Origin: an uncultured Butyrivibrio sp.
GTDB taxonomy: Bacteria > Bacillota > Clostridia > Lachnospirales > Lachnospiraceae
Assembly: GCA_947167765.1 (NCBI GenBank)
Contig: CAMVJI010000002.1
Coordinates: forward strand, 494-64,493
Length of the DNA stretch: 64,000 nucleotides
Reading direction: 5' to 3'
A model generated the notes under the pieces. That model saw nothing but the letters and a program-made list of their open reading frames with translations, had not been told where the DNA came from and made no database searches. The translations under genes and the position numbers were made by a program. The first letter of the stretch is position 1. Each line of letters begins with the position of its first letter. Of this stretch, positions 25,088-56,438 are shown one piece after another.

Positions 25088-25136
25088 ACTATGATGCACT
25101 TATTGTGCACAGTTACATATTAAAAGGGAAATTTTT

Positions 25137-35092: not shown

Positions 35093-35104
35093 CTGAGAGC
35101 ACTT

Positions 35105-35173: not shown

Positions 35174-35185
35174 TAGGAGATAATT

Positions 35186-36900: not shown

Positions 36901-36904
36901 TGGT

Positions 36905-40484: not shown

Positions 40485-40487
40485 GTT

Positions 40488-41597
40488 ATGAAGAGTATTG
40501 CGTTTCACTTAAATTGCCTTGTGCAGGGCGGCGCTGAGAGGGTTGTATCAAACCTTGCCAATCAGTTTGCCAAAGAAGGCATCAAGGTATATGTGGCCAC
40601 AGAGTGGTATGACAAGGACGAGTTTGAACTGGACGAGAGAGTAACAAGAGTCCACGTAGGACTAAGGCCTGAAGATGAAAAGAAAAACAGGATCACAAAG
40701 TTCTTTTTAAGGATCAAGTACCTTAAAGAATTTGTAAAAGAGTATCATCCTGACGTGCTGGTGGCTTTCGCTCAGAGAGCTAATTACAGAGCTTTGATGG
40801 CTGCCGGAAAGAGCGACATTCCTGTTGTAATATCCATAAGGACCGATCCTGTTGGTCATTACGACGCCATCTCTGATAAGATCCAGATCAAATGGCTCTT
40901 TGACAGGGCAGCAGGCTGTGTGTTCCAGACAACAGGTCAGAAAGAGTTTTTTAAACCTTACCTTCAGGACAATTCAGCCATTATATTAAACCCTGTTAAC
41001 CCAAAATATTTTGATGTTAAGAGAGTTGATAATCCGGAAAAGGCTGTTGTACATCACGCAAGGCTTGTAGACTTCAAAAATCAGCCGCTTTTGTGCGAGG
41101 CTTTTGTGGAGGTACATAAAAAGCATCCTGACTATGTTCTTAAGATATACGGACCTGATTCCTTTGACGGAACAAAAGAGATCCTTGATAAGATAATTGC
41201 AGATAATCACGCTGAGGATTACATCCTTTTAATGGGCGGTTCTGATTCTCTTGAAAAAGAGATAATAAAGGGCGAAGTTTATGCCTTTACCTCTGACTGG
41301 GAGGGAATGCCTAATTCTCTTTTGGAAGCCATGGCAATGGGAATGCCTATTGTTGCAACTGACTGCCCCTGCGGAGGCCCCAGGACTGTTATGAGAGATG
41401 GTGAAAACGGACTTCTTGTTCCGATCAAGGACAAGGATGCCATCGTAAATGGTCTGTGCAGGCTTATTGAAGATAAAGAGCTTGCAACAAGGCTTGGAAA
41501 AGAGGCTGCGAAGATAGAAGAGATCACCAATGGCGATGCTATCTTCGTGCAGTGGAGAGACTATCTGGACAAGGTAATTGCTGATTTTAAGAAGTGA
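40488..41597 (+). CDS. GT4 glycosyltransferase (PglH/PglJ-like)
   Basis: GGAERV, FQT and EGMPNSLLEAMAMG..TDCPCGGP motifs. Confidence 0.86.
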   Translation: MKSIAFHLNCLVQGGAERVVSNLANQFAKEGIKVYVATEWYDKDEFELDERVTRVHVGLRPEDEKKNRITKFFLRIKYLKEFVKEYHPDVLVAFAQRANYRALMAAGKSDIPVVISIRTDPVGHYDAISDKIQIKWLFDRAAGCVFQTTGQKEFFKPYLQDNSAIILNPVNPKYFDVKRVDNPEKAVVHHARLVDFKNQPLLCEAFVEVHKKHPDYVLKIYGPDSFDGTKEILDKIIADNHAEDYILLMGGSDSLEKEIIKGEVYAFTSDWEGMPNSLLEAMAMGMPIVATDCPCGGPRTVMRDGENGLLVPIKDKDAIVNGLCRLIEDKELATRLGKEAAKIEEITNGDAIFVQWRDYLDKVIADFKK

Positions 41598-41615
41598 TTT
41601 TATAGGAGAAATAAA

Positions 41616-42377
41616 ATGTTTTCATTTGATGATTACAGAGAGATATTAAGGATAATCAAGGCTACAGGCCGCTATGCAACTTATGAAGAGGCTCTTTCAA
41701 AAGACGAATTCATCATCATGCGCCATGACGTAGAGTACTCAGTTGAGAGGGCTTATGCTCTTTCTAAGGTTGAGGAGAGCATGGACTTCAGATCCACATT
41801 CTTCTTCCAGTGGACCAACAATTCCTACAATATCCTCTCACGTAAGAACAGGGATATTCTTACTGATATGCATGAGAGAGGTCAGAATATAGGTCTTCAT
41901 TTTGCCCTTAATGGCATGACAGATATGAAGCTTGTAAGAGAGAGGATCAAGCAGGAGATCGACATGCTCAGCAACATGCTTGGATTTGAGATCAACTCTT
42001 TTTCCATTCACAGGCCTTCACCAAGTGTTCTTGCTGAGAATATCAAGCTTAAGGGCATTTTGAATGCATATCAGGACGAGTTCTTTTCTTTTGACCCAAA
42101 GGCTACACCTGAGTCCAAGCTTGAAGTCAAGTATATGTCTGATGCGAACCACATCTGGCGCTATGGATATCCTGATGAAGAGACCATAAATGGGCATAAA
42201 AAGATCCAGATCCTTACCCATCCATTTGCATGGTGCAAGAAGGGCTACGATAACCTCGATAACTACAAGGCTCTTGTAAATGAGAAGTACAAAGAGCTTA
42301 TTGATTCAATAGACAACGAATGTAAGGACTTTGGTCCACTTAGAGATGAGTTTGATAAAAAGATCTTTGATATGTGA
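41616..42377 (+). CDS. Polysaccharide deacetylase-like protein (WbmS-like)
   Basis: MRHDVE, STFFF, IGLHF, SIHRP, YMSD and QILTHP motifs. Confidence 0.65.
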   Translation: MFSFDDYREILRIIKATGRYATYEEALSKDEFIIMRHDVEYSVERAYALSKVEESMDFRSTFFFQWTNNSYNILSRKNRDILTDMHERGQNIGLHFALNGMTDMKLVRERIKQEIDMLSNMLGFEINSFSIHRPSPSVLAENIKLKGILNAYQDEFFSFDPKATPESKLEVKYMSDANHIWRYGYPDEETINGHKKIQILTHPFAWCKKGYDNLDNYKALVNEKYKELIDSIDNECKDFGPLRDEFDKKIFDM

Positions 42378-42399
42378 TCAGTCATTTGGAGAAGCTTAA

Positions 42400-44343
42400 A
42401 TGTGTGGAATCTGTGGATACGTATCTAAAAAAAGAATAACAGAAGAACAGCTCAGGATAATGAATGACACCATGTACCACAGAGGTCCGGATGATTCAGG
42501 TGTAGAGATTTATGCTGGAACTAATGATTACTTCGTGGGATTTGCGCAAAGGCGCCTTGCGATCCTTGATCTTTCACCCCTTGGACATCAGCCCATGCAT
42601 TCAGAAAATGGCAGAGTATCTGTGGTTTTCAATGGTGAGATATACAACTTCCTTGAGCTTAGGGAAGAGATAAGTGATTATGAGTTCAAGACCAACTGCG
42701 ATACAGAGGTGATAATTGCAGCTTACCTTAAGTGGGGCATTGACATGGTTGACCACATCCATGGCATGTTCGCCATAGCTCTTTATGACAGAGCAAGTAG
42801 CGAAGTATTTCTCATTCGCGACAGGATAGGCAAGAAGCCACTGTTTTACTGGATTGACGGTGGGAACATTGTCTTTGGCTCAGAGCTTAAACCTATCATT
42901 AAGTGCCCTGGCTTTAAGGGGGAGATCAGAAGGCAGCTCCTTCCAAGATATCTGTACAATCAGTATATCAGCGCTCCTGAGACCATTTTTACAGATGTGT
43001 ACAAATTGGAGGCTGGATCAGTACTACGGTTTAAAGACGGCGAGATCAAAAAGTGGAAGTACTGGGATATAAAGAAAGTATATAAAGAAAAGTCCATGGA
43101 TCCTGTTGGCAGCTATGAGGAGGCCAAAGAGGGACTTAAGCTCAGGCTTAAGAACAGCGTTGCAGCCCGTATGATCGCTGATGTGCCCCTTGGAACTTTT
43201 TTGTCAGGTGGCTATGATTCATCTCTTGTGACTGCCATGGCCCAGGAGCTTTCTGATGAACCCATAAAGACTTTCTGTATAGGTTTTGATGTGCCCAGCT
43301 ACAATGAGGCAGAGTATGCCAAGGAGATCGCAAACTATCTTGGCTGTGACCATACAGAGCTTTACATCACAGAAAAAGAGATGTTTGATCTGGTTGCCAG
43401 TATTCCTCAGTACTACGACGAACCATTTGCAGACAACTCAGAGATACCTTCCATGCTTGTAAGCAAGCTTGCAAAAAAGGACGTTACTGTAGCCTTATCA
43501 GGTGATGGGGGCGATGAGTTTTTCTGCGGCTATAATGTCTATGACAATGTATGGCAGGCTCAGAGACTGGAGATTCCAGGAGCTATTGTAAATGCCATTG
43601 GAGGGATCCCAGTAGGATCTGGAAAACTTATAGATAAGATGCCCTTCAGGGTTAAGGTCATCGCTGGAAATAGAGATCCTGAAACCAAGACACAGCTGGT
43701 GTCAGAAGGGTACGTTAAAGCGGCACATGCTTTTATTTCAGGAAAAGAGACACTGGACATACCTGTTTCAGCTCTTGACTATATAAATACAGATTTTAAT
43801 CTGGGTATTAATGAAGCTCCTGTTTTATATCCTATGGAGAGCCTGTATTCTACCAGGGATTTCCAGGTAAAGAGGATGCTTTTGGATATGGATACTTATC
43901 TTCCTGATGATATCCTTGTGAAAATGGACAGGGCATCCATGAAATATTCTCTTGAAAACAGATGTCCAATCATGGACACAGAGGTTATGGAGTACTCATT
44001 CAGGATCCCTCACAAGTTCAAGTATCACAACAAAGACAAGAAGCATATCCTTAAGGATATTGCTTATGATTACATTCCAAGACAGATGCTTGAACGCCCC
44101 AAGACAGGTTTTGGCGTTCCTATGGATGCATGGCTTCGTGGCCCATTAAAAGAGGCGCTTCTTGACTACAGCAGCACCTCCTACTTAAAGAAACAGGGAG
44201 TATTTGACCCTGAATATGTATCAAGATTTATAAGCGATTATGTAGCTAAAGGAGATGCAGGCCCGGCAACTGGAGCTAATTTCAGTAAGATTGCCTGGTC
44301 ATTCTATATCTTCCAGCAATGGTATAATTATTACATGGTTTAA
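42400..44343 (+). CDS. asnB: Asparagine-synthetase-like glutamine amidotransferase (probable uronic acid amidation)
   Basis: N-terminal MCGICG, HRGPD, RLAILDL, FNGEIYN, LSGGYDSS, SGDGGDE and KTGFGVP motifs. Confidence 0.88.
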   Translation: MCGICGYVSKKRITEEQLRIMNDTMYHRGPDDSGVEIYAGTNDYFVGFAQRRLAILDLSPLGHQPMHSENGRVSVVFNGEIYNFLELREEISDYEFKTNCDTEVIIAAYLKWGIDMVDHIHGMFAIALYDRASSEVFLIRDRIGKKPLFYWIDGGNIVFGSELKPIIKCPGFKGEIRRQLLPRYLYNQYISAPETIFTDVYKLEAGSVLRFKDGEIKKWKYWDIKKVYKEKSMDPVGSYEEAKEGLKLRLKNSVAARMIADVPLGTFLSGGYDSSLVTAMAQELSDEPIKTFCIGFDVPSYNEAEYAKEIANYLGCDHTELYITEKEMFDLVASIPQYYDEPFADNSEIPSMLVSKLAKKDVTVALSGDGGDEFFCGYNVYDNVWQAQRLEIPGAIVNAIGGIPVGSGKLIDKMPFRVKVIAGNRDPETKTQLVSEGYVKAAHAFISGKETLDIPVSALDYINTDFNLGINEAPVLYPMESLYSTRDFQVKRMLLDMDTYLPDDILVKMDRASMKYSLENRCPIMDTEVMEYSFRIPHKFKYHNKDKKHILKDIAYDYIPRQMLERPKTGFGVPMDAWLRGPLKEALLDYSSTSYLKKQGVFDPEYVSRFISDYVAKGDAGPATGANFSKIAWSFYIFQQWYNYYMV

Positions 44344-44356
44344 AAGGAGAAGTAAT

Positions 44357-44599
44357 ATGACAAGAGAAGAGATATTTGGAAAGTTAAATGAAGTGTTCAG
44401 AGATGTTTTCGAGGATGACGACATAACTGTTAGTGATGCCACAACTGCAGATGACATCGAGGACTGGGATTCTCTTGAGCACATCAATCTCATAAATGCT
44501 ATTGAGCAGGAATTTGGCATCAAGTTTAACATGGGACAGATCGTGTCAATGAAAAACGTTGGCGAGATGGTAAGCATTATCGAGAGCAAGCTTTCATAA
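44357..44599 (+). CDS. Acyl carrier protein
   Basis: 80 aa acidic protein with the WDSLEHINL phosphopantetheine site. ATG 44357 follows AAGGAG; the track ORF start at 44255 is too long. Confidence 0.88.
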   Translation: MTREEIFGKLNEVFRDVFEDDDITVSDATTADDIEDWDSLEHINLINAIEQEFGIKFNMGQIVSMKNVGEMVSIIESKLS

Positions 44600-44616
44600 G
44601 CTTTTAAGGAGCAGTT

Positions 44617-45009
44617 ATGAAGATTCATCACGTTGGTTACCTGGCCAAAAACCTTGAAAAGTCTGCAGCCAAATTTTTGGAGCTGGGCTACGAGGTTGAA
44701 AGACCATGTAAGTACGATCCGATCCGCAAGATAAATATTGAATTCTTAAAAAACGGGGATTACAGAGTTGAACTCATTCAGCCCATGAGCGAGGAATCGC
44801 CCATGTTCCCGCTTCTTAAGAGATTTAAGAACACACCCTATCACTTCTGCTATGAGGTGGAGGATGTTGAAATAGCTGCAAAAGAGCTGTCTGAAAAAGG
44901 CTACACTGTTATTCAGGAGCCAGAGATAGCACCTTGTATCGATGACAGAAGAGTTGTTTTTATGAACAACATCAGTATGGGGATCATAGAACTTGTCGAA
45001 ACCAGATAA
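44617..45009 (+). CDS. VOC/glyoxalase superfamily protein (methylmalonyl-CoA epimerase-like)
   Basis: IHHVGY, VELIQP, YHFCYEV and IELVE metal-ligand pattern. Confidence 0.8.
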   Translation: MKIHHVGYLAKNLEKSAAKFLELGYEVERPCKYDPIRKINIEFLKNGDYRVELIQPMSEESPMFPLLKRFKNTPYHFCYEVEDVEIAAKELSEKGYTVIQEPEIAPCIDDRRVVFMNNISMGIIELVETR

Positions 45010-46210
45010 CCAGAAAAAACCGCATATTGCCATGTACATTGGATCCCTGCAAAAGGGTGGCGCTGAGAGGGTTATGAGTAATCTCTGTGACTACTTTTTT
45101 GAACAGGGCTACAGGGTTACCCTTGTGACAACATACCTGGCAGCCAATGAGTATGAGGTAAAACATGCTGCCTGGAAGAGCGTACCTGCAGGTGCAGAAA
45201 ACGCTACGCTGGTGGCTGATCTTGATGAGAACCCTGTATGGGTGGATCTTTCTGGCGGTGAGAAAAATGGTATCCAGAGAGTCTTTTCAGCTCTTCTTAA
45301 GTCTGAGCAGAAGGACAGGATCACCAATTTCAGATTAAGACATAAAAAGCTCAGGGACATATGGCGCAGTTTAAAACCAGACGTGGTCCTTAGCTTTATT
45401 GGTAAGAACAATATAATGGCTCTTTCAACAGCCACAAGAGAGGGGATCAAGGTAGTTGTTTCCGTCAGGGCAGACCCTGACTGGGAGTATTCTACTACAG
45501 CCCTGAAGGCAGGAATGCTTTCAAACTTTGGCAAGGCAGCAGGTGTTGTTGTACAGTCCAACGGAGCAAAAGAAAAATTCCCGGGCTACATTCAAAAGAA
45601 GTGCACTATTCTTCCAAACTCCATGGATCTTTCCTTTGTGAGAAAGCGCTATGTAGGTGAGCGTGAAAACACCATAGTCATGGTGGCAAGACTTCATGAG
45701 AACAAGAATCAGGGTCTTGTTATGGAGGCCTTTAAAGAGGCTACAAAAGACAGATTTAAAGATTATAAGCTCGTATTTTACGGAGACGGTCCAGACAGAC
45801 TTAAGCTTCAGCACAAGGCCACTTCCATGGGAATTGATGACAGGGTGGAGTTTAAGGGCAATGTAAAGCACGTGGCCGAGCACATAGAAAAGGCCAAGCT
45901 ATTTGTCCTTGCATCAGGCCATGAGGGAATGCCTAACTCCCTTATAGAAGCCATGTCCTTGGGACTGGCCTGCATATCAACGGACTGTCCCTGCGGAGGA
46001 CCAAGGGACCTTATCACAGATGGTGTGAATGGACTTCTGGTTCCTGTAGGCGATGTTAAGGCATTGACTAATGCTATGGTAAAGGTACTTGAAGATGAGG
46101 ACTTTGCTAACAAGCTTGGCAGTGCAGCAACAAGCGTCCAGAAAAGATTTGCTCCTGACATTGCCAATGCTATGTGGAAGGAATATTTCGACAAGATAAT
46201 AAGACAGTAA
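44993..46210 (+). CDS. GT4 glycosyltransferase (paralog of 40488-41597)
   Basis: GGAERV and EGMPNSLIEAMSLG..TDCPCGGP motifs. TTG start overlaps the VOC gene. Confidence 0.85.
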   Translation: MSKPDNQKKPHIAMYIGSLQKGGAERVMSNLCDYFFEQGYRVTLVTTYLAANEYEVKHAAWKSVPAGAENATLVADLDENPVWVDLSGGEKNGIQRVFSALLKSEQKDRITNFRLRHKKLRDIWRSLKPDVVLSFIGKNNIMALSTATREGIKVVVSVRADPDWEYSTTALKAGMLSNFGKAAGVVVQSNGAKEKFPGYIQKKCTILPNSMDLSFVRKRYVGERENTIVMVARLHENKNQGLVMEAFKEATKDRFKDYKLVFYGDGPDRLKLQHKATSMGIDDRVEFKGNVKHVAEHIEKAKLFVLASGHEGMPNSLIEAMSLGLACISTDCPCGGPRDLITDGVNGLLVPVGDVKALTNAMVKVLEDEDFANKLGSAATSVQKRFAPDIANAMWKEYFDKIIRQ

Positions 46211-46229
46211 ATAGAAAACAGATAAATGA

Positions 46230-46256
46230 AAAACCTCGGCGCTCTGCCGAGGTTTT
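46230..46256. terminator. Bidirectional intrinsic terminator
   Basis: AAAACCTCGGC-GCTCT-GCCGAGGTTTT, a perfect 11-bp stem 20 nt after the stop at 46210. Confidence 0.85.
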
Positions 46257-46278
46257 AGTATATCTACTGAGTGGGGGA

Positions 46279-46514
46279 ATCCACAGCCGCTTCTTGAATT
46301 ATAAGCCTTGTGGAATGAATATCAATAGCCTTTCGCGGCATATCCTCGTTGAAGGTGAGTCAGTGGGGACGTTACAGTTTGACTCACTGGGGAGCTGTGA
46401 GTCAAACTGTAACGTCCCCACTGACTCACCTCCAACTGCGGTATTCCACGGTGCTATTGACATTCATCCCACAAGACTTTTTTGGTGATCAAGCGGCCAT
46501 GGATGGGGACGCTA
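46279..46514 (-). other. Hairpin A: ssoA/Frpo-like single-strand origin or ssDNA promoter candidate (alternatively a structured ncRNA)
   Basis: 226-nt rod (46279-46504) whose helical mismatches are G.T on the minus strand. The 3' arm has GATATGCCGCGAAA (46331-46344), TTGATA (46320-46325), 16 nt, then unpaired TATAAT (46298-46303). TAGCGT lies at 46509-46514. Confidence 0.65.
46353..46431. repeat. Perfect 35-bp inverted repeat (REP-like doublet) forming the apex of hairpin A
   Basis: AGGTGAGTCAGTGGGGACGTTACAGTTTGACTCAC (46353-46387), a 9-nt loop, then the exact reverse complement (46397-46431). Each arm has its own GTGAGTCA/TGACTCAC stem. Confidence 0.9.
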
Positions 46515-46547
46515 TTCCGCACCATCGTGTTCGCTGTGACGTTAATT

Positions 46548-46814
46548 TAATACCCCTGACCACTTTGGACTCGTAGGTATTATGGCTTTTAAAAAATAGC
46601 GCTTTTTATTTTAATAAAGATAATACCCAAGGCTATCTTACAACTGTCAGGTATTAAAAACTGAATGTGGTTTGATAAAAACTTGCATAAATTGCAGAGG
46701 AAAGGTCATACCAATAGCCACTAACTGTTATTGTGGTATTAAAAGCGCCTAAAATATTTATTTAAAGCAAGAAATCCATAAGACCAGCCATTAGTAATTC
46801 GTGAAGTGGTATTA
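46548..46814. repeat. Array of four 35-36 bp palindromic units TAATACC-N21/22-GGTATTA
   Basis: Units at 46548-46582, 46621-46656, 46706-46741 (TCATACC) and 46779-46814 (TAAGACC). Start spacing is 73, 85 and 73 nt, with AT-rich linkers. Confidence 0.75.
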
Positions 46815-47069
46815 GGTAGCTCATAATAGGGGGCAATCATCAAATCTTAAACAGCTCTGGGACAAGAATACTAGGGCAAGTCCGTAATGAGATTCGATAA
46901 CGGTTGATATTGCCCCAAATACTACGGACTAGAAGAAGGGAAAATGCTATACAGTCTGAATTTCACAAATAACGCCATCCTATTGGCATAATACCGAACA
47001 CCACAAAATGACGGCCCCAGATATGCCAAAAATCCCCGCTGGTAGCCAGCGCTCTTCATGCCACTCCCT

Positions 47070-47259
47070 GTTCATCCCCCGTTTGATTACCCAAAAACGT
47101 CCACCGGAAATCGGTCAAGTGGACCATGGAATACCGCAGCAGATACGGATGGTGGGATCAGCTGAATTGCTGAAAACACCTAGTATCTGCGAGGATATGC
47201 CGTGAAAGCTACTTGGGCGATTTACGGTGGACGTTATAATTCAAAGAGCGGGGATGAAC
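47070..47259 (+). other. Hairpin B: second ssoA/Frpo-like element, homologous to hairpin A, on the opposite strand
   Basis: 190-nt rod closed by GTTCATCCCC/GGGGATGAAC. The 3' arm has GATATGCCGTGAAA (47194-47207), TTGGGC (47213-47218, opposite GGTCAA), 16 nt, then unpaired TATAAT (47235-47240). Confidence 0.65.
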
Positions 47260-47264
47260 CCATA

Positions 47265-49058
47265 TTATCTTACTGATACCTTGATATGGCTGTTCTTGTT
47301 CTTGTAGTCGCTACTGATCTCCAGCTTGTAGGTGGCATTGCCATCGGCGTCTTCAGACACTTTTTCAAAGCCCTGAAGGGTGTAGAAATCTTTTACCATC
47401 TTGTTCTTGGCAGTAGGATAGTAGTAGCCATAGATGGTTTTAATGCCCTTTTCAAGGGCTTTTTCGTGAAGTGCATCCATCATTGCAAATTCCATATCTC
47501 TTTTAAGAACGCGGCAGCTCATGAGCCACAGGTCGATGTGGAGCTCGTCGCCTTTTATGCTTCCGGCAATGAGAGATACGATACCATTATCGCCAAACTT
47601 ATCTGATAGGCGCCCATAAAGTGTTATGCACTTTGGATCATTGGCCGTTTTTTCAATGTCATCGGGGCTGTAGCGTTTGGTGGTCAAATTGAACTGATTA
47701 CTCTTGTTGGTGAGCTGGGCTATCCTTGGAATATAGAGCTTTTCAAAAGGAGCAATCTCAGCCTCCATATCAAGGGAAGTGAGGTACTCTCCGTAATCAG
47801 CAAAGCTCTCCTCAGCTTCAGTGCGCTTTTTGTTGGCAATGTACATTTCGTTTCTTTTCCTGTCATCCTCAGATACAGAGGTGGCTTCAAAGAAACCTGA
47901 GTGATCAAGGATCCTTATGTAGTGCTCAGGAGTGTCTATTTCTGGGACTGCAGCCCCCTTTACCTGTCCTTCGATGATGGCTCTTTCTGCAGGATTGTCA
48001 TCTACAAATACCAGGGAATCAGGTAGTATGTTCAGCTCTTTGGCAATTGACTTAAGGTTCTCGCTCTTTGGATCCCAATTAGCTCTTATGGCCACAAAGT
48101 CGTCGGGCTTAAGGATTCCATCTGGGTGAGAAAGGCCTGCCATGGCATTTTCTTCCTCGTTCTTGGAATCAACGGTTAAAAGGACACCGATGTCCTTTTG
48201 CATTTTTACATAGTGCTGGAACTCTGCGTACACCTGACCAAGGTTGGTTTCCTGACCAATCTCAATCCCGTCAACGCCATCGTCTCCAATGACGCCTCCC
48301 CAAAGAGTATTATCAAGATCAAGTACAAGACCCTTTTTGTTCCTGCCATAGATTGACTTGATAATGTTGGCTACGCTGAAGCTAAGGGTTGGGATTGCTG
48401 GGATGCACAGGGCGTATTTGTACATGTGCCAGGTAAGTGGATCAGACCACTCATCAAGGCCATAGCAGCTTGAAAGGTAGTTTATATCGTTGATAAAAAA
48501 GCTTGTAGAGTTATCAGAAGCCTGCCTTGCAAACTGAGCAAATTTCTCATTTAATCTGTTTATGAACGATACTCTTCCGTGGACATCGTAGAAGTCACGG
48601 TTTCCCATAAGCCTGTAAAAGGGAGCTTCAAAATTGTTCTGGATAACAGGGCAGTGATAAGTCTCTATCAGTTTTTTCCACATGGTCTCAAAGTGCTGGT
48701 AAGTCTTATCAAGCTTATCCTCAACAGTAGCAGCATCGTCGTCCATTGTGGGATAGTCTGTAATGTTGCGGTTACTTGTGTGTATAAAGATCACATCAGG
48801 AGAAAATGAAGAAAGCTCCTCTCCAAACATGGCATCCTGCCAGTACTGTCCATATTCTGATTCATAGAATTCTGGTTCAATACCGTAGTTTAATAGAAAA
48901 AGCTCCATAACCTTTATGATATCGTGAGTGGTTGAACCTCCAAGAACCGCGATCTTCTTGTGAATGCGCTGGCTACCATCAGCTAAAAGAGCTTTCTTTA
49001 TGCTCTTTTTCTTTTTCATAATGTAGTTGCTATCAAAAGGATATTCTAGTTCTTTCAT
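47265..49058 (-). CDS. FkbH-like HAD-IIIC protein (glyceryl-ACP synthase family)
   Basis: LVLDLDNTLWGG, SKN, ANWDPKS, VFVDDNPAE, QLTNKSNQFNLT, DKFGDNG and WLMSCRVL motifs, plus an extra N-terminal domain. Confidence 0.88.
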   Translation of the reverse strand: MKELEYPFDSNYIMKKKKSIKKALLADGSQRIHKKIAVLGGSTTHDIIKVMELFLLNYGIEPEFYESEYGQYWQDAMFGEELSSFSPDVIFIHTSNRNITDYPTMDDDAATVEDKLDKTYQHFETMWKKLIETYHCPVIQNNFEAPFYRLMGNRDFYDVHGRVSFINRLNEKFAQFARQASDNSTSFFINDINYLSSCYGLDEWSDPLTWHMYKYALCIPAIPTLSFSVANIIKSIYGRNKKGLVLDLDNTLWGGVIGDDGVDGIEIGQETNLGQVYAEFQHYVKMQKDIGVLLTVDSKNEEENAMAGLSHPDGILKPDDFVAIRANWDPKSENLKSIAKELNILPDSLVFVDDNPAERAIIEGQVKGAAVPEIDTPEHYIRILDHSGFFEATSVSEDDRKRNEMYIANKKRTEAEESFADYGEYLTSLDMEAEIAPFEKLYIPRIAQLTNKSNQFNLTTKRYSPDDIEKTANDPKCITLYGRLSDKFGDNGIVSLIAGSIKGDELHIDLWLMSCRVLKRDMEFAMMDALHEKALEKGIKTIYGYYYPTAKNKMVKDFYTLQGFEKVSEDADGNATYKLEISSDYKNKNSHIKVSVR

Positions 49059-49106
49059 TCTTATCTCCGAAATGTAGTGTTTTTAAGGGGAATTTAAGTC
49101 TGTTTC

Positions 49107-49115
49107 ATCATATCA
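49107..49115 (-). promoter_or_regulatory. Putative extended -10 promoter for the FkbH-like gene
   Basis: The minus strand reads TG-A-TATGAT about 50 nt upstream of the ATG. Confidence 0.45.
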
Positions 49116-49130
49116 CATTTTCACTTAGGT

Positions 49131-49158
49131 TTGTTTATACCATAGAAAATGATATAAT
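49131..49158 (+). promoter_or_regulatory. Putative promoter for the asnB2-MBOAT-SGNH operon
   Basis: TTGTTT (49131-49136), then TG-A-TATAAT (49150-49158). Confidence 0.6.
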
Positions 49159-49206
49159 TCATTTGATACTAGGGCCTTTGGCCTTGGGAATTGTGAAAGG
49201 AATCAT

Positions 49207-51090
49207 ATGTGCGGGATCGCAGGACTTTTGAAGTTTAAGGGCGACGTCAGGGGCAACATCCAGAAGATGAATGAAAGGATGCTCCACAGAGGCCCTGACG
49301 ACGGCGGTATTTATATAAGTGAAGATGGCAGCGTGGCGCTTGGTCACAGGCGCCTTTCTATTGTGGATCTTTCTAAGAATGGTGCACAGCCTTTTGTGTC
49401 GGCATCTGGCAGGAACATAATGGTATATAACGGCGAGATATACAATGCTGGAGAGCTAAAAAAAGACCTTGAAAAAGAGATCTCTTTTCGCAGTACCTCA
49501 GACACAGAAGTGCTTATCGAAGCAATAGAAAAGTATGGAATAGACAGGACTCTTGAAAAGATCAAGGGAATGTTTGGCTTTGCTGTTTTTGATAAAGAAA
49601 AAAGGACAGTCACCCTTGCCCGTGACAGGATAGGGGAAAAGCCCCTTTACTACGGAATGGTAAACGGAGCATTTGTGTTTGCATCCGATATAGGCTGCAT
49701 CAGAGTGTTAGATGATTTTACCAATGGCATAAGTACAGATGTACTGGACATATACTTCGAGGATGGTTATATTCCATCTCCATATTCGATCTACAATGAT
49801 ATCTACAAGCTTGAGCCTGGCAAGTACCTTACTGTTAATGTTGACAGTTTGGAGACTTCGCAAAAAACCTACTATTCTCTTAAGAATGTAGCTTATAAAG
49901 GACAGCATGACAGGTTCAAGGGAAGCTTTGAGGAAGCCTCCCTGGAGCTTGAAAGGCGACTTAAGGATTCTATAAAAGGTCAGATGGTTGCGGATGTTCC
50001 TCTTGGAGCATTTCTTTCTGCCGGAATAGACAGTTCAACTGTTGTATCTCTCATGCAGTCTATTGCTCCTGGTAAGGTTCGCACCTTTACCATTGGCATG
50101 AACGACGATAAGTACAATGAGGCTGTTTATGCAAAAGAGATAGCACAGCATCTGGGGACTGACCACACAGAGCTTTATATCACAGAGGATGACGCCAAGG
50201 CAGTTATCCCAAAACTCCCATTTATGTTTGGTGAGCCCTTTGCGGATTCTTCCCAGATCCCAACATATCTGGTCAGCAAGATGACAAGAGATCATGTCAC
50301 TGTGTCGCTTTCAGGTGATGGTGGAGACGAGCTCTTTTGCGGATATAATTCCTACAGGTCAGTCAGCAGAGTCTGGAATAAGATAAAAAAGATCCCTTAT
50401 CCTTTGAGGAAGGCGTTAAGTGAAACCCAGCTTCTCTTTGCTGGAAGCGATATAACCGGGGATCCGGGAAAAGAGGTTAAGTACCTCAAGGCAAAATATA
50501 TGGGAGCAAGATCTCCCTATGAAGTTCACAAGTTTGAGCATGAGACAGATCCTTTGATAGGACAGATTGCCCTAAAAAAGGGCACTGCCAAATATAAGTG
50601 TATGGACATTCCAAAGGACTTTCTTGGGGAGGTCAATCACGAGGTCATGCTCATGGATATGCTTTTGTACCATCCGGAGGATATTCTTGTTAAGGTTGAC
50701 AGGACAGCTATGGCGGTATCCCTTGAGACTAGAGTTCCAATGCTTGACAGGGACGTCGTGGACTTTGCCTTTAGTCTTCCCATCGAGTATTTAAGGGATG
50801 ACAAGACTGGCAAAAAGATACTCAGAGATGTATTATACCGATATGTGCCAAAAGAGATGATGGAACGCCCCAAGAAGGGATTTTCCATTCCAATAAGCAA
50901 GTGGCTCCTGGATAGTGACCTTAGGCAGTGGGCTGAGGAGCTTTTAGACAGAGACAAGATAAGGCAGCAGGGAATTCTTGATGCCGATGTTGTTCATAAG
51001 ATATGGACAGACTTTACTACAAGGGGAATATACAGAGTGCAGATATGGTACATTCTGATGTTCCAGCAGTGGTATGAGGAAGAGTTTTAA
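49207..51090 (+). CDS. asnB: Second asparagine-synthetase-like glutamine amidotransferase
   Basis: MCGIAG, HRGPD, RLSIVDL, YNGEIYN, LSAGIDSS, SGDGGDE and KKGFSIP motifs. Confidence 0.88.
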   Translation: MCGIAGLLKFKGDVRGNIQKMNERMLHRGPDDGGIYISEDGSVALGHRRLSIVDLSKNGAQPFVSASGRNIMVYNGEIYNAGELKKDLEKEISFRSTSDTEVLIEAIEKYGIDRTLEKIKGMFGFAVFDKEKRTVTLARDRIGEKPLYYGMVNGAFVFASDIGCIRVLDDFTNGISTDVLDIYFEDGYIPSPYSIYNDIYKLEPGKYLTVNVDSLETSQKTYYSLKNVAYKGQHDRFKGSFEEASLELERRLKDSIKGQMVADVPLGAFLSAGIDSSTVVSLMQSIAPGKVRTFTIGMNDDKYNEAVYAKEIAQHLGTDHTELYITEDDAKAVIPKLPFMFGEPFADSSQIPTYLVSKMTRDHVTVSLSGDGGDELFCGYNSYRSVSRVWNKIKKIPYPLRKALSETQLLFAGSDITGDPGKEVKYLKAKYMGARSPYEVHKFEHETDPLIGQIALKKGTAKYKCMDIPKDFLGEVNHEVMLMDMLLYHPEDILVKVDRTAMAVSLETRVPMLDRDVVDFAFSLPIEYLRDDKTGKKILRDVLYRYVPKEMMERPKKGFSIPISKWLLDSDLRQWAEELLDRDKIRQQGILDADVVHKIWTDFTTRGIYRVQIWYILMFQQWYEEEF

Positions 51091-52638
51091 ATGAGTGTTA
51101 CATCCTTTAGTTTTTTGTGCTTTTTTGCACTGGTTTTGATCATATATTACGCGCTCCCTGTGTTGACCAAGGGGCGCGGTCAGTGGGTCGTACTTCTTTT
51201 GGCGAGTATGGCCTATTATCTGTTATCTGGCAATGAGGTTCTGATAATCTATCCAGTAATTTCTTCGTTTATCACCTGGGGGCTCCTCCAGATCCTTTCA
51301 AAGACATCAGAAGAAAACGTAAAGGTAAGGCGCATGCTCCTTGTGCTTGAACTTGTAACGCTCCTTGGAATACTGGTGGCATTTAAGTACACCAAGCTTA
51401 TTCATAAGGGATCAATAGTTCCGCCTTTAGGTTTGTCTTTTTATACCTTTATCCTTCTTGGATATTTTGTAGAAGTATACAACGGACTAAGTACTGCTAA
51501 TAAGAGCTTTTTAAAGACGGCTCTGTATGGCATGTATTTCCCGGTTATGATATCAGGTCCTATTTTTCAGATAAGGGAAACGGGAGAGCAGTTCTTTGAA
51601 AGGCACAGGCTGGATTACAAAAATCTTACCTTTGGCCTTTTTAGGATGCTCTGGGGATTTTTCAAAGAGCTTGTTATTTCCGAGAGGCTTGCAGTTATTG
51701 TAAACACAATCTACAACGATGACACTGCTTATCCAGGAACTTACATATGGATCGGTACAGTGTGCTTTGCGCTTCAGCTCTACACTAATTTTTCCGGATG
51801 CATGGACATAGTGATTGGTATTTCAGAGACCTTTGGCATCGTGCTTCCTGAGAATTTCAGAACTCCCTTTTTTGCAAAAAATATCAGCGAGTACTGGCGC
51901 AGATGGCATATCACTCTTGGTGTGTGGATGAGGGAAAATGTCTTTTACCCGCTGCTCAGGACCAGGATGATCACTGGACTTGGCAAGGCGCTTAAGGGTA
52001 AGCTCGGCAAAAAGAAAGGTAAGCAGTACACAACTTATGTGGCTATGTTTATCCTTTGGTTCTCTGTAGGTATGTGGCATGGCGGAGAGATGAAGTATGT
52101 TATCGGATCTGGCCTTCTTCACTGGGCATACATTGTTCTGGGCGAGATAACACTGCCGTTTTTTACCTGGCTCTTTGCAGAGAAAATGCATATGGATCTA
52201 AAGAGCAAGGCGGCGGATGTATTCAGGGTTATAAGGACTTTCTTCTTTGTATGCATCGGCGATCTGTTTTTCAGGGCAGATAATGTTCCCCACGCATTAA
52301 GAATGATGGCGGAGGGCGTATCAAAGTTCAATCCCTGGGTTTTAGTTGATGGAAGCATCTTTGAGCTTGGACTTGACTTTGTGGAGATAGGGATATTAGT
52401 TGTTTCTCTTATTATCCTGGTGGTGGTTTCAACTGTGCAGTACAGGATGGAACTTAGCGCGGATGGAGCTTTGGAAGGATCAAGATTTAAGGGATACTCA
52501 AATGTAAGAGAATATCTGGCATCTAAAGGCACTGCCATCAGATGGATAGTGATAATAGCATTTTTATTCTACTGCATATTGCTGGCTGAATATGGCCCTG
52601 GCTATAGCGCGGCTGAATTTATATATAAGGATTTTTAA
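51091..52638 (+). CDS. MBOAT family O-acyltransferase (AlgI/DltB-like) with a C-terminal FIYKDF motif
   Basis: PLGLSFYTF, YFP..SGPI, NFSG, ENFRTPF, YWRRWHITL and GMWHG motifs. Ends in EFIYKDF. Confidence 0.9.
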   Translation: MSVTSFSFLCFFALVLIIYYALPVLTKGRGQWVVLLLASMAYYLLSGNEVLIIYPVISSFITWGLLQILSKTSEENVKVRRMLLVLELVTLLGILVAFKYTKLIHKGSIVPPLGLSFYTFILLGYFVEVYNGLSTANKSFLKTALYGMYFPVMISGPIFQIRETGEQFFERHRLDYKNLTFGLFRMLWGFFKELVISERLAVIVNTIYNDDTAYPGTYIWIGTVCFALQLYTNFSGCMDIVIGISETFGIVLPENFRTPFFAKNISEYWRRWHITLGVWMRENVFYPLLRTRMITGLGKALKGKLGKKKGKQYTTYVAMFILWFSVGMWHGGEMKYVIGSGLLHWAYIVLGEITLPFFTWLFAEKMHMDLKSKAADVFRVIRTFFFVCIGDLFFRADNVPHALRMMAEGVSKFNPWVLVDGSIFELGLDFVEIGILVVSLIILVVVSTVQYRMELSADGALEGSRFKGYSNVREYLASKGTAIRWIVIIAFLFYCILLAEYGPGYSAAEFIYKDF

Positions 52639-53735
52639 TGAACAGAAAACAGATAATAACTTCAATAATTTTCATAGTGCTGGTGCTGTTTTTGGGACTT
52701 CACCTTACTTACATCCTTCGAACCAACGGAGATGTTAAGGACAGGTTTGTAGGTTTCTATGCGGAAAAGAATGATACCATCGATGCGGTATTTATTGGCT
52801 CAAGCCCCCTTCCTGCCTGTGTTGCAACGCCAAAGATCTACAAAGAGAGCGGGATCACAATTTACCCTTTGTCTTCTAACATGCAAAGACCAGTTGCCAC
52901 CAAATATCTTGTGGAAGAGGCACTAAAGAGCCAAAAGCCAGATCTTTTCATATTCGAGATGAGGATGTGGACTGCGGCAGATGAGGATCTTCTTGGAAAT
53001 ATGGCCCACACAAGGGAAGTTACTGACAACATGAAGTATTCTGTCAACAGGATTAAGACCATCAATGCAATGGTTGATGACAAAAACGACAGGATAAATT
53101 ACTACTTTGATATTTTCAAATATCATTCAAACTGGAAGACATTGTTCTTGTGGAGTCAGTTAAGAACTGCGTTTTACTGTTACCCGGAAGATCTTAAGGG
53201 AAGCCTTGTTGAGACAGAAGTAGGTCCCTGCGATCCGCCTGTCATGTTGCCAGAAAGTGAAAAGGAACCTATTCCATCTGAACAGGAAGAGTACCTCAAT
53301 GACCTTCTTGATTATCTTGATGAAAATAACATCAACGCACTTTTTGTTGTAACACCTTATGATGCCAAAGAACATGAACAGAGACGCTTTAACTATATGG
53401 CTGACATCATTTCAAAAAGAGGATATAACTTCCTTGATATGAACAGGCATTTAGATGAGATCGGAATAGATTTTTCCAGAGATATAAAAGACTATGGAAC
53501 CCATACCAATGTGGCGGGAGCTGCAAAGGTAACGGACTTCCTTACACAGTATCTTATCGAGAATTATAGGGATAAAGGCATAGCCCTTTCTGATGATCAC
53601 AGAGAAGATCCAAGGTACAAGTCTTGGGATAAGGCCTATGACAAGTGGCAGACAGAATATGAAGAGGGACTTGATACTATTGACAGTAACCTTGAGAATG
53701 GTATCTACTATGAGCTGCCTGACGAAGATGACTGA
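52638..53735 (+). CDS. Membrane-anchored SGNH/DltD-like extracellular acyltransferase
   Basis: One N-terminal TM, a VFIGSS nucleophile block and a DYGTHTN..GA DxxH block. Translationally coupled to the MBOAT. Confidence 0.7.
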   Translation: MNRKQIITSIIFIVLVLFLGLHLTYILRTNGDVKDRFVGFYAEKNDTIDAVFIGSSPLPACVATPKIYKESGITIYPLSSNMQRPVATKYLVEEALKSQKPDLFIFEMRMWTAADEDLLGNMAHTREVTDNMKYSVNRIKTINAMVDDKNDRINYYFDIFKYHSNWKTLFLWSQLRTAFYCYPEDLKGSLVETEVGPCDPPVMLPESEKEPIPSEQEEYLNDLLDYLDENNINALFVVTPYDAKEHEQRRFNYMADIISKRGYNFLDMNRHLDEIGIDFSRDIKDYGTHTNVAGAAKVTDFLTQYLIENYRDKGIALSDDHREDPRYKSWDKAYDKWQTEYEEGLDTIDSNLENGIYYELPDEDD

Positions 53736-53747
53736 GATGCTCACTTA

Positions 53748-53756
53748 TGGTATAAT
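53748..53756 (+). promoter_or_regulatory. Extended -10 promoter for the GT11/ABC operon
   Basis: TG-G-TATAAT, 33 nt upstream of ATG 53790, which has a GGAGG RBS. Confidence 0.55.
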
Positions 53757-53789
53757 TTCATATGTATATGCAATTTTGTCGGAGGGGAT

Positions 53790-54662
53790 ATGATAATAAT
53801 CCAGCTCAAGGGCGGACTGGGAAACCAGATGTTCCAGTATGCTCTTTACAGAGAATTACTTCATAGAGGAAAACAGGTCAAGATCGACGACGTAACGGGA
53901 TTTGAGAATGATAAGTTAAGGAAGCCTGTTTTGGATCGTTTTGGAATAGAGTATGAGAGGGCAACACCTGAAGAGGTAGTGGCCATCACTGATTCCAAAA
54001 TGGATATTTTTAGCCGTATAAGGCGTAAACTGACAGGCCGTAAGACCCACAGGATAGATGAGACTGAAGGTATCTTTGATCCCAAGATTTTAGAAGTTGA
54101 TGAAGCGTATCTGGTTGGCTACTGGCAGTCAGACAAGTACTTCACTTCACCAGAAGTTATCGAACATCTTCAGGAGACCTTTGCAAAGAGACCTCAGGAG
54201 ATAATGCATGACTCAGTCAGCTGGACTACCCTGCAGCAGATCGAGTGCAGCGAGTCTGTAAGTATTCACGTTAGACGTACAGATTATCTGGACGAAGAGC
54301 ACATCAAGATCCACAACCTGTGCTCAGCAAAATATTATAAAGACGCTATCAGCATGGTTAGGGAGAAGCATCCCAACGCTGTGTTCTTCATCTTTACCGA
54401 TGACAAAGAGTGGTGCAAGGAGCACTTTAAAGGTCATAATTTCATTAACGTAGAACTCCAGGAGGGCGAATTTACTGATGTTGCAGATATGCTCTTAATG
54501 AGCAGATGCAAGCACCACATTATAGCCAACAGCTCCTTTAGCTGGTGGTCAGCGTGGATCGGGGATTCTCCGGAGAAAATGGTCATCGCTCCAGCAAAGT
54601 GGATCAACAACAAAAAGATGGATGACATCTATACAGAGCGTATGACAAAGGTGGCAATTTAA
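53790..54662 (+). CDS. GT11 alpha-1,2-fucosyltransferase
   Basis: GGLGNQMFQY, GYWQSDKYF, IHVRRTDY, FTDD and IIANSSFSWW motifs. Confidence 0.9.
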   Translation: MIIIQLKGGLGNQMFQYALYRELLHRGKQVKIDDVTGFENDKLRKPVLDRFGIEYERATPEEVVAITDSKMDIFSRIRRKLTGRKTHRIDETEGIFDPKILEVDEAYLVGYWQSDKYFTSPEVIEHLQETFAKRPQEIMHDSVSWTTLQQIECSESVSIHVRRTDYLDEEHIKIHNLCSAKYYKDAISMVREKHPNAVFFIFTDDKEWCKEHFKGHNFINVELQEGEFTDVADMLLMSRCKHHIIANSSFSWWSAWIGDSPEKMVIAPAKWINNKKMDDIYTERMTKVAI

Positions 54663-56438
54663 ATGAATCTTTTGAAAAAGATCAATTATATATTTGACAA
54701 AAAACAAAAAGGACAGCTTGTACTTTTAGCTGTCCTTATACTGATTGGAGGTGTCGTTGAGACTCTTGGTGTTTCAATGATGATCCCTGTTATTTCAGTT
54801 ATCTTAAAACCAGAGTCCCTTCACAGGCAGATCGACAAGTACCCTGTCCTTAAAAGCGTCATCGAAGGGATGGGGCTTGACAGTGATCTCAAGCTGGCAA
54901 GTGCTCTTTTGATCATTCTTATATTTCTTTTTATATTTAAAAATCTCTATCTTCTGTTTCTTGTTTACAAGCAGAACACCTTCATATCACATGCCAGAAA
55001 CGACATGATAAGCAGAGTCATGAGGGAGTTTTTGAACAGGCCCTACGAAGATTATCTCGGGGCAGATATCCCTACAGTATTCAGAATAACTGACAGTGAC
55101 ATCCCCAAGACATTTACACTTATGCTGTCGATCCTGTCACTTACAACAGAGCTGGTAGTTTCCATCTGTCTTGGAATAGTTCTTTTATTTGTAAACTGGC
55201 AGATGACTGCACTTATCCTGGTTGTCCTTGCTGTTCTGACCCTTATCATCACCAAGATATTAAAGCCAAGGCTCAACGTGATCGGCAGAAGAAATCAGGA
55301 GACTCAGTCAAGGATAGCAAAGTGGAGACTTCAGGCTATTTATGGTCTTAAGGATGTAAAGGTTTTAAACAGACAGGATTTCTTTATCAGGAACTACTAC
55401 GAGCAGGGTAAGATAGGAGCTGACATCGACAGGAACTATGTCGTAATGAACAACATTCCAAGGCTCCTTATTGAGACCGTGTTTATTGCTGTGGTTCTTT
55501 TGTATGTGCTTTTCTATTTGCTTAGCGGAGGGGATGCAACATCTCTGCTTCCACAGATCACAGCATTTGGTATGGCAGCAATCCGTATCATGCCTTCTGC
55601 CAACAGGATAAATACTTATCTTACACAGATAGCCTACAACCAGTACAGTCTTGATTTTGTCTACAACAACCTGACAGAGTCCATGAAGACAGACAAGGCC
55701 ATGAGGGCAGAGAGAGCAGCCATTGCAGGACCAGCTCTCCATTTGGAAAAAGAGATCCAGATGAAGGATATTGTTTTTGCTTACCCTGATTCTGAAGTAA
55801 ATATTTTTTCTGGTGCCAACATGACAATCAAAAAAGGACAGTCTGTGGGACTTATGGGACCATCTGGTGCAGGTAAGTCCACAATAGTTGATATCCTTTT
55901 AGGACTTCTTCACGTTAAGTCTGGAGAAATACTTTGCGACGGCAGCAATATCTTTAGTAACTACGAATCCTGGCTTGCCCAGATAGGTTATATTCCTCAG
56001 TCCATCTACCTTGTGGATGAATCCATAAGAGAGAACATCGCTTTTGGTATCGACGCAGAAGAGATAGACGATGACAGGATCTGGGAGGTCATGGAAGAGG
56101 CACAGCTATCTGACTTTGTTAAGTCACTTCCAGAGGGACTTGATACCAAGATCGGCGACAGAGGCGTAAGGCTCTCTGGCGGACAGAGACAGAGGATCGG
56201 TATTGCCAGAGCTCTTTATCACAACCCTGAGATCCTGGTATTTGATGAAGCCACCAGCGCTTTGGATAACGAGACAGAAGCAGCAGTTATGGAGGCCATC
56301 AACAGCTTCCATGGCCGCAAGACCATGATCATCATTGCCCACAGGCTCAACACTATTGAGAACTGCGATGTGATCTATGAGGTTAAGGATCAGACAATAA
56401 CACAAACGTCTCTGGAAGGAAGAGCAGTAATTCACTAA
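54663..56438 (+). CDS. Second fused TMD-NBD ABC transporter (PglK-like), paralog of 13796-15547
   Basis: GPSGAGKST, LSGGQRQR and FDEATSALD motifs. Shares TMD motifs with the first copy (PRLLIET, PSANRIN). Confidence 0.85.
   Translation: MNLLKKINYIFDKKQKGQLVLLAVLILIGGVVETLGVSMMIPVISVILKPESLHRQIDKYPVLKSVIEGMGLDSDLKLASALLIILIFLFIFKNLYLLFLVYKQNTFISHARNDMISRVMREFLNRPYEDYLGADIPTVFRITDSDIPKTFTLMLSILSLTTELVVSICLGIVLLFVNWQMTALILVVLAVLTLIITKILKPRLNVIGRRNQETQSRIAKWRLQAIYGLKDVKVLNRQDFFIRNYYEQGKIGADIDRNYVVMNNIPRLLIETVFIAVVLLYVLFYLLSGGDATSLLPQITAFGMAAIRIMPSANRINTYLTQIAYNQYSLDFVYNNLTESMKTDKAMRAERAAIAGPALHLEKEIQMKDIVFAYPDSEVNIFSGANMTIKKGQSVGLMGPSGAGKSTIVDILLGLLHVKSGEILCDGSNIFSNYESWLAQIGYIPQSIYLVDESIRENIAFGIDAEEIDDDRIWEVMEEAQLSDFVKSLPEGLDTKIGDRGVRLSGGQRQRIGIARALYHNPEILVFDEATSALDNETEAAVMEAINSFHGRKTMIIIAHRLNTIENCDVIYEVKDQTITQTSLEGRAVIH

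Follow-up and report, generated by a model that had tools for sequence, protein, structure and literature searches.

Within a 64,000-nucleotide stretch of DNA from an uncultured rumen Butyrivibrio sp. (assembly GCA_947167765.1, contig CAMVJI010000002.1, positions 494-64,493, forward strand; hereafter the window), we analysed a cassette of five genes encoding an acyl carrier protein (ACP), a VOC protein, an FkbH-type loader, an MBOAT membrane acyltransferase and an SGNH-fold partner of the MBOAT. The best explanation for the cassette, which we hold with moderate confidence, is a carrier-protein-fed, extracytoplasmic acylation relay, similar to the Dlt system but with a different loader. A C3 glyceryl group drawn from glycolysis would probably pass to the small carrier protein, from there to the membrane enzyme and on to a surface polymer. 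We infer both the acyl group (D-glyceryl, or a form of it altered by the VOC protein) and the acceptor, which is most likely the glycan built by the surrounding glycosyltransferases. An initial annotation of this DNA had proposed that FkbH stands in for DltA within a Dlt-like relay, and comparative genomics supports that reading because four independent lines bear it out: genes that are shuffled but stay adjacent, linkage across families, four-gene operons, and relatives of the MBOAT that are flanked by DltA- and DltC-like genes. In one carrier-fed MBOAT lineage, FkbH/ACP and DltA-like/DltC-like pairs seem to serve as alternative loaders.

The five genes of the cassette

Each of the five genes is an intact open reading frame (ORF) at the coordinates first assigned to it, with a family match or a confirmed fold:

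44357..44599, plus strand: dedicated ACP, 80 amino acids; PP-binding (PF00550), 27 bits against a cut-off of 20.8
44617..45009, plus strand: VOC/glyoxalase-fold metalloenzyme, 130 amino acids; Glyoxalase_4, 67 bits
47265..49058, minus strand: FkbH-type loader, 597 amino acids, with FkbH_N, a HAD-IIIC phosphatase domain and a C-terminal domain carrying Cys515; TIGR01686
51091..52638, plus strand: MBOAT, 515 amino acids, with His330 and a fused C-terminal acyl-shuttle motif; PF03062, 50.5 bits against a cut-off of 27
52638..53735, plus strand: membrane-anchored SGNH-fold transferase, 365 amino acids; AlphaFold model and fold search

Profile hidden Markov models placed the FkbH, PP-binding and MBOAT domains above their cut-offs as anticipated, but the partner, for which a DltD/SGNH match had been expected, has no DltD Pfam match and is assigned to SGNH by fold only. 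One detail of the initial annotation needed amendment: the FkbH gene has the stated coordinates, but it runs on the strand opposite to all its neighbours and lies beyond a 1.05-kb non-coding dispersed repeat.

The FkbH protein scored 294.3 bits with TIGR01686 (cut-off 146.65; positions 3-320 of 323), and it also matched FkbH_N and HAD-SF-IIIC (63.5 bits). It carries the DLDNT (D247/D249) and SCR motifs, and residues D247, D249, T251, S298, K331, D353, D354 and C515 (codon 47514-47516) are invariant in 18 homologues of 28-64% identity. Residues 18-398 match the solved structure of BF1531 (3slr, E 5e-49). It is the single FkbH match in this genome, which is 79% complete. The accepted role of the family is the loading of glycerate from 1,3-bisphosphoglycerate, as cited in PMC13122637. 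The phosphopantetheine serine of the ACP is S39, within DWDSL (codon 44471-44473); it is invariant in 37 homologues, and the protein is 57-85% identical to the FkbH-adjacent ACPs of 36 other loci. Generic ACP models matched it only below their cut-offs, with no DltC model among the matches.

The VOC protein is an optional member of the cassette that probably acts on the 2-hydroxyacyl thioester of the ACP. It has the VOC fold but scored only 51.6 bits with the methylmalonyl-CoA epimerase model (TIGR03081, cut-off 114.95), and the solved structures nearest to it are the Clostridium-type 2qh0 and 3hdp (E 1.5e-36), deposited as lactoylglutathione lyase/glyoxalase I. Glyoxalase I handles 2-hydroxyacyl thioesters via an enediolate. 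Since both glyoxalase I and methylmalonyl-CoA epimerase form an enolate or enediolate next to a thioester, epimerization to L-glyceryl is the simplest guess for the VOC protein, with beta-elimination as an alternative. The annotated function of 2qh0 and 3hdp may itself be a side activity, if their genes also adjoin an FkbH-ACP pair.

These properties also bear on whether the relay, working as proposed, moves a group other than glyceryl, either because FkbH loads another small phosphorylated acid or because the VOC protein changes glyceryl-ACP before transfer, as a beta-elimination yielding a pyruvoyl or 2-hydroxyacryloyl thioester would do. The glyoxalase-like relatives of the VOC protein are compatible with such a conversion, as are variant cassettes of other lineages (L023, L024, L053 and L074), in which a MaoC-like dehydratase follows the ACP in the slot of the VOC gene, itself followed by a short-chain reductase in L023 and, by homology, in L074. 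These variants suggest that the C3 acyl unit is edited differently in different lineages. For the window, however, we consider another acyl group distinctly improbable: the FkbH domain scores at twice its family cut-off, with invariant phosphatase and cysteine residues, no dehydratase, reductase or methyltransferase adjoins the ACP, and four in five cassettes contain no VOC gene, which implies that transfer of unmodified glyceryl works.

The MBOAT ends in FIYKDF (52618-52635), which bears out the tyrosine shuttle noted at the outset: Tyr512 is invariant in 37 homologues, as is H330 (codon 52078-52080), which lies in WHGG and aligns with the conserved WHG histidine of DltB (6bug). DltB (6bug, 8jem) was the only solved MBOAT matched by its sequence, and the FxYxxF motif occurs in nearly all of 103 related MBOATs. 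The start of the SGNH partner overlaps the MBOAT stop codon, and its SGNH family adjoins every related MBOAT examined. The partner matched no Pfam or NCBIfam model, DltD (PF04914) included, and a sequence search of solved structures gave nothing meaningful; matches came from the fold search alone. Its AlphaFold model (predicted local distance difference test score 93.6) has an N-terminal helix (residues 3-27) followed by a Rossmann-like domain that resembles many SGNH proteins with Z of 12-13 (PatB 12.2, OatA 12.0; root-mean-square deviation about 2.8 Å over about 165 residues), and DltD structures were among its Foldseek matches, weakly. Residues G54, S56, G188 and H289 are invariant in 31 homologues, with Ser56 (52803-52805) and His289 (53502-53504) as the candidate nucleophile and histidine. 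A predicted complex of the MBOAT with the ACP (alignments A3 and A4), run without controls, scored 0.18 against a mark of 0.32; it favours neither binding nor its absence.

From these features a five-step route can be proposed. FkbH would take 1,3-bisphosphoglycerate, its HAD domain would remove the 3-phosphate and the glyceryl group would be held on Cys515, as family membership and the conserved residues suggest. The near-universal adjacency of the two genes points to transfer onto the Ser39-phosphopantetheine of the ACP. Where present, the VOC protein might then alter the 2-hydroxyacyl thioester, epimerization being the simplest reading of a step that is weakly indicated. With His330, the MBOAT would take up the acyl group of the ACP on the cytoplasmic side and move it to Tyr512 of its own FIYKDF motif at the outer face, a step suggested by gene linkage and by the position of the MBOAT on its tree. 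Finally, Ser56 of the SGNH protein would pick up the group and esterify a hydroxyl of the surface polymer, by its fold and by analogy with DltD and PatB.

In the Dlt system, a loader charges the carrier, the MBOAT passes the group to the tyrosine of an FxYxxF motif, and from there a membrane-anchored SGNH-fold protein takes it to the polymer (PMC12148441). The window cassette has a counterpart for each of these parts, but its loader is an FkbH phosphatase/transferase whereas that of Dlt is the adenylation enzyme DltA; its acyl group would be a C3 hydroxy acid from glycolysis, supplied without ATP activation, whereas that of Dlt is an amino acid; and its tyrosine motif is fused to the MBOAT whereas in Dlt it sits on the DltX microprotein. 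The cassette accordingly falls outside Dlt proper. The DltB model gives the MBOAT 140 bits against a cut-off of 375, the ACP has no DltC match above a cut-off, the partner has no DltD Pfam match, there is no separate DltX, and the contig carries no DltA. The absence of a DltA-type enzyme and of a polyketide synthase or non-ribosomal peptide synthetase from the window, asserted in the initial annotation, extends to the whole contig: AMP-binding matches (eight in the genome) and the genome's one ketosynthase match all lie on other contigs.

PatA/PatB and AlgI/AlgJ share with the cassette an MBOAT extended at its C-terminus by two helices that end in FxYxxF and a separate SGNH transferase, but they use acetyl-CoA and no carrier (PMC12148441), whereas the window MBOAT has a dedicated ACP and loader. 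Glyceryl-ACP synthases of the FkbH/OzmB type share the FkbH domain, the HAD motifs, the catalytic cysteine and a carrier that is always paired with the loader. The window differs from them in lacking a polyketide synthase or non-ribosomal peptide synthetase, in having a free-standing ACP and in pairing it with a downstream membrane acyltransferase within a glycan locus.

Linkage of FkbH, carrier and MBOAT across genomes

Across four other Butyrivibrio assemblies and one metagenome contig, the cassette genes stay adjacent in three orders. Three loci (two Butyrivibrio assemblies and the metagenome contig) have FkbH-ACP-VOC-MBOAT-SGNH and encode an identical FkbH; B. fibrisolvens has ACP-VOC-FkbH-MBOAT-SGNH; and B. 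proteoclasticus has ACP-VOC-GT4-FkbH-AsnB-MBOAT-SGNH, which is the order of the window but with FkbH co-directional.

In a sample of Lachnospiraceae with one genome per genus (n = 151), FkbH scored above its cut-off in 24 genomes, and MBOAT homologues were present in 136. The six best MBOAT matches (41-59% identity) all lay less than 5 kb from an FkbH gene. Twenty FkbH loci were fetched, and among the 19 with enough flanking sequence an ACP gene was within 5 kb in 16 and an MBOAT gene in 12.

Beyond the family, a pattern search gave 80 loci with FkbH at 55-65% identity, labelled as Lachnospiraceae, Oscillospiraceae, Christensenellaceae, Acutalibacteraceae and 'Bacilli', with a few from Synergistaceae, Endomicrobiellum, Odoribacter and Leptolinea; the labels of these last four may be binning errors. 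Scoring covered the 59 of these loci that had 3 kb or more of sequence on either side, with labels of Lachnospiraceae, Oscillospiraceae, Christensenellaceae, 'Bacilli' and a few bins from other phyla. Among them, an ACP gene was within 5 kb in 56, an MBOAT gene in 42 and both in 42, compared with about 1% expected for an MBOAT by chance, a rough estimate from some three MBOAT genes per 3-Mb genome. The SGNH family of the partner was found at 16 of these loci and a VOC gene inside the cassette at 12. At least two of the loci scored as lacking an MBOAT (L082 and L087) may have one that the profile missed: at each, a large unannotated gene adjoins a DHHW/AlgX-like partner that lies directly upstream of FkbH. 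The co-occurrence of these genes in other genomes, on which the initial annotation had made its reading depend, is thus frequent in many genera and families for FkbH, ACP and MBOAT.

Four distant loci (L037, L073, L100 and L041) are compact operons of FkbH-ACP-MBOAT-SGNH with gaps of 3-81 nucleotides. Each is directly preceded by genes on the opposite strand, and the one in L037 is also followed by such genes. The operons hold no other acyltransferase, so that the ACP-bound product has no other consumer there. In two 'Bacilli' bins (L055, 12027-19989, and L072), FkbH-ACP-MBOAT is accompanied by three to five paralogous SGNH partners, mostly in tandem downstream of the MBOAT, and one donor with one MBOAT may serve several acceptor-specific transferases.

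Linkage of this kind also bears on a different use of FkbH and ACP, namely the supply of glycerate for the backbone or anchor of a polymer, as in the glyceric-acid lipoteichoic acid of Clostridioides difficile, with the MBOAT acting elsewhere. The backbone of C. difficile PS-III contains glyceric acid as one of its units (PMC13558421). A core wall polymer would fit the unusual conservation of FkbH across Butyrivibrio; the closest homologues of the window protein all carry that genus name, at 70-91% identity. An ACP thioester, however, is an acyl donor and not a glycosyl acceptor, and a backbone role leaves both the MBOAT-SGNH linkage and the four-gene operons unexplained. We therefore regard it as very unlikely.

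MBOAT relatives and their loaders

On a tree of 103 MBOAT sequences, that of the window falls in a group of 42 that are all linked to FkbH, 39 within 5 kb and three at 5-8 kb. This group lies inside a 67-sequence split with a Shimodaira-Hasegawa-like approximate likelihood ratio test (SH-aLRT) support of 96, made up of 45 FkbH-linked sequences, 20 linked to a DltA-like enzyme and carrier, and two linked to neither, one of which is on a contig that ends in an AMP-binding fragment. Hence 65 of the 67 have a loader or carrier gene nearby, at less than 5 kb in 62 and at 5-8 kb in three: either FkbH, whether or not an ACP was detected with it, or a DltA-like enzyme, a DltC-like carrier or both. The acyl-CoA-using MBOATs of the PatA/AlgI type are marked by having no carrier or loader that travels with them, and the split does not show this mark. 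A second FkbH-linked group of 16 sequences, fully supported, lies elsewhere on the tree. The loader label changes 10 times on the tree, compared with a mean of 30 after shuffling, a difference that reflects clustering and not independence as related sequences share labels.

A comparison set comprised the 20 best-matching MBOATs from genomes without FkbH nearby (L107-L126, from other Lachnospiraceae genera). The FkbH-type ACP profile found no carrier beside any of them, whereas a second carrier family of 74-77 amino acids and an adenylation enzyme of about 507 amino acids were found in 19 of the 20. The best named matches of the enzyme are DltA models (287-313 bits, below the equivalog cut-off), and the carriers match DltC models weakly. 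These cassettes hold the nearest relatives of the window MBOAT outside the FkbH-linked group, with the same SGNH family and the same fused motif; they differ in having an amino-acid adenylation enzyme as loader and a carrier from a distinct family. Presumably they transfer an amino acid. We know of no description of cassettes that combine DltA-like, DltC-like, fused-motif MBOAT and SGNH genes.

The genome of the window (2.9 Mb) has one such set itself, on the minus strand of contig C12 (L127, 4791-9141): a DltC-like carrier of 74 amino acids, a DltA-like enzyme of 507, an MBOAT ending in FIYGGF and an SGNH partner. Sets of this type resemble Dlt, except that the MBOAT itself carries the DltX motif as a fusion, and they score below the DltA, DltB and DltC equivalog cut-offs. 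In all, the genome has eight MBOATs, on contigs C1 (three), C2, C12, C96, C228 and C298, and only that of the window has FkbH, ACP and VOC genes near it. Five have no carrier nearby and fall outside the 67-sequence split. The three on C1 lie within 19 kb (36545-55045), two of them with SGNH partners of the same family and none with a carrier or loader nearby.

Several observations weigh against a carrier-fed relay. About a quarter of FkbH-ACP loci show no MBOAT, and some of these hold an aminoglycoside N-acetyltransferase-like protein or a hexapeptide transferase. The counts overstate independence, because the sampled loci are mutually related and were selected by their FkbH genes. The MBOAT tree is a quick, unrooted one, and support for the 42-sequence group is moderate (SH-aLRT 81). 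In the window itself, FkbH is inverted, and a GT4 gene and the repeat element lie between it and the ACP. A promoter scan found no promoter-like site in the 149-bp gap upstream of FkbH, sites being no more frequent than in shuffled sequence; this copy is intact, and its expression in the strain is assumed, since its upstream region showed no consensus promoter. MBOATs without a carrier nearby also have the fused FxYxxF tail and a partner of this SGNH family, features that therefore indicate a tyrosine-shuttle relay but not its donor. Fused-motif MBOATs are moreover said to use acyl-CoA, without a carrier protein (PMC12148441). As the fused motif and a carrier are combined here, either that generalization is too narrow or the linkage is misleading.

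If the linkage misleads, the window would hold two unrelated systems: an acetyl-CoA-fed MBOAT-SGNH O-acetyltransferase of the PatA/PatB or AlgI/AlgJ kind, and an FkbH-ACP-VOC set for cytoplasmic acylation, for instance of an amino sugar to its N-glyceroyl form. The product of cj1302, a Campylobacter jejuni gene, is probably an N-linked glyceroyl derivative made in the cytoplasm. Like the FkbH gene of the window, cj1302 is an FkbH-domain gene in a glycan-modification locus, that of the flagellar glycan, without a polyketide synthase (PMC7099621); unlike the window gene, it has no MBOAT partner mentioned in that paper. An N-glyceroyl sugar is also known from Tannerella forsythia (Pse5Am7Gra; PMC5420450). 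The amino-sugar tailoring genes of the window (DegT aminotransferases, formyltransferase-like and deacetylase-like) would suit such a product, and the carrier-less MBOAT-SGNH pairs of the same build in this genome, the reported acyl-CoA use of fused-motif MBOATs and the N-acetyltransferase-like or hexapeptide transferases at MBOAT-less loci all agree with a division into two systems. Against it stand the 42 of 59 distant loci with an MBOAT less than 5 kb from FkbH, far above the rough chance estimate, the four-gene operons without another acyltransferase, and the tree, on which FkbH-linked MBOATs group together with nearest relatives linked to a DltA-like enzyme and carrier. A candidate acyl-ACP-dependent N-acyltransferase was not found in the window. 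We judge the two-system explanation unlikely and retain the single, carrier-fed relay.

A wider proposal follows on the relay, to which we give about even weight. It holds that there is a second carrier-dependent route for extracytoplasmic polymer acylation, widespread in gut and rumen Bacillota, which installs glycerate esters (D, or L with the VOC epimerase) from 1,3-bisphosphoglycerate; that this route arose in one MBOAT lineage by the swap of a DltA/DltC-like loader for FkbH/ACP; and that acyl-CoA is not the only kind of donor open to MBOATs with a fused tyrosine shuttle. To our knowledge, no route other than D-alanylation of teichoic acids uses a carrier protein to pass acyl groups through the membrane onto a wall polymer; the remaining MBOAT-SGNH systems are all taken to use acetyl-CoA. 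The initial annotation knew of no biochemical characterization of this gene combination, in agreement with our searches of open-access text, which gave no description of an FkbH-fed MBOAT relay; queries combining FkbH with polysaccharide or teichoic acid topics returned only natural-product papers and a mention of C. jejuni cj1302.

If correct, the relay would add a hydroxy-acid ester, neutral and hydrophilic, to the known surface modifications, would couple the chemistry of the surface to central carbon flux via a glycolysis-fed, ATP-independent loader, and would widen the donor range of bacterial MBOATs. It would also give a function to a very common unannotated gene set ('HAD-IIIC family phosphatase' and 'acyl carrier protein') in rumen and gut Bacillota, and could shed light on the installation of glyceryl esters such as those in gellan. 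Surface esters influence phage adsorption, immune recognition and polymer properties, and the cassette therefore bears on microbiome ecology.

The surrounding glycan locus and a dispersed repeat

The window is one long glycan region, almost wholly on the plus strand. Three further features lie between the cassette genes:

44993..46210, plus strand: GT4 glycosyltransferase between the VOC and FkbH genes, not part of the relay; Glycos_transf_1, 131.8 bits
46279..47259, no strand: non-coding dispersed repeat with terminal inverted repeats, between the GT4 gene and the FkbH 3' end, not part of the relay
49207..51090, plus strand: AsnB-type amidotransferase, contiguous with the MBOAT start; Asn_synthase, 341 bits

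Among the Butyrivibrio loci compared, only the window and B. proteoclasticus have the GT4 gene between VOC and FkbH and the AsnB gene between FkbH and MBOAT; in other Butyrivibrio, AsnB lies elsewhere in the locus. The amidotransferase is probably outside the relay.

The glycan-locus setting described in the initial annotation is borne out by the glycosyltransferases, exporters and sugar-tailoring genes found around the cassette. They include many GT2, GT4, GT11 and GT17 glycosyltransferases, two initiating phosphoglycosyl transferases and two ABC exporters, together with 4,6-dehydratases, DegT aminotransferases, a UDP-sugar dehydrogenase, an ATP-grasp enzyme, two AsnB-type amidotransferases, a formyltransferase-like protein, and DUF2334 and CE4-like deacetylase candidates. 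Judged by this gene set, the acceptor is likely to be a complex heteroglycan with amino and amidated uronic sugars. No nonulosonic-acid synthase, which would have favoured an N-glyceroyl pseudaminic acid, was found among the annotated window ORFs, which lie outside 60.3-63.8 kb.

The gap from 46211 to 47264 (about 1.05 kb) is the sole long non-coding gap of the window. It contains nested inverted repeats, from 46287 to 47251, with a perfect 35-bp palindrome inside, and partial copies of the repeat (67-94% identity) occur on at least eight other contigs of the genome. Rfam gave only a chance-level match on the gap. The position of the repeat coincides exactly with the inversion of FkbH relative to B. 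proteoclasticus, so that the repeat looks more like a non-autonomous mobile element than like a regulatory element acting in cis. We also considered FkbH as an invertible segment and rejected this, as no inverted repeats bracket the gene; those found bracket the 1-kb element only.

Elsewhere in the locus, genes for a UDP-sugar dehydrogenase, an SDR epimerase/decarboxylase-like protein, a DUF2334 deacetylase-like protein and an ArnA-like formyltransferase are interleaved with glycosyltransferases at 33776-40484. The set recalls the Arn pathway for 4-amino-arabinose, and its order is kept in other Butyrivibrio loci (L003-L006). A DUF6020 membrane protein of 549 amino acids and an 875-amino-acid protein with a weak Wzy_C (O-antigen ligase-like) match are encoded at 23413-27764, and PglK-like ABC exporters at 13796-15547 and 54663-56438. 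Taken together, these genes hint at a lipid-linked glycan that would be flipped and then ligated to a protein or wall acceptor.

The window also encodes a conserved protein of 253 amino acids (41616-42377) with no Pfam or NCBIfam match. In other Butyrivibrio its gene immediately precedes the cassette, and in L009, L033 and L038 it lies close by. An automatic Atlas name for look-alikes of this protein, GCN5 acetyltransferase, would make it a GNAT acyltransferase, but its invariant RHDVE, GLH, HRP and HPF motifs resemble those of NodB/CE4-type deacetylases, and it may be one of these.

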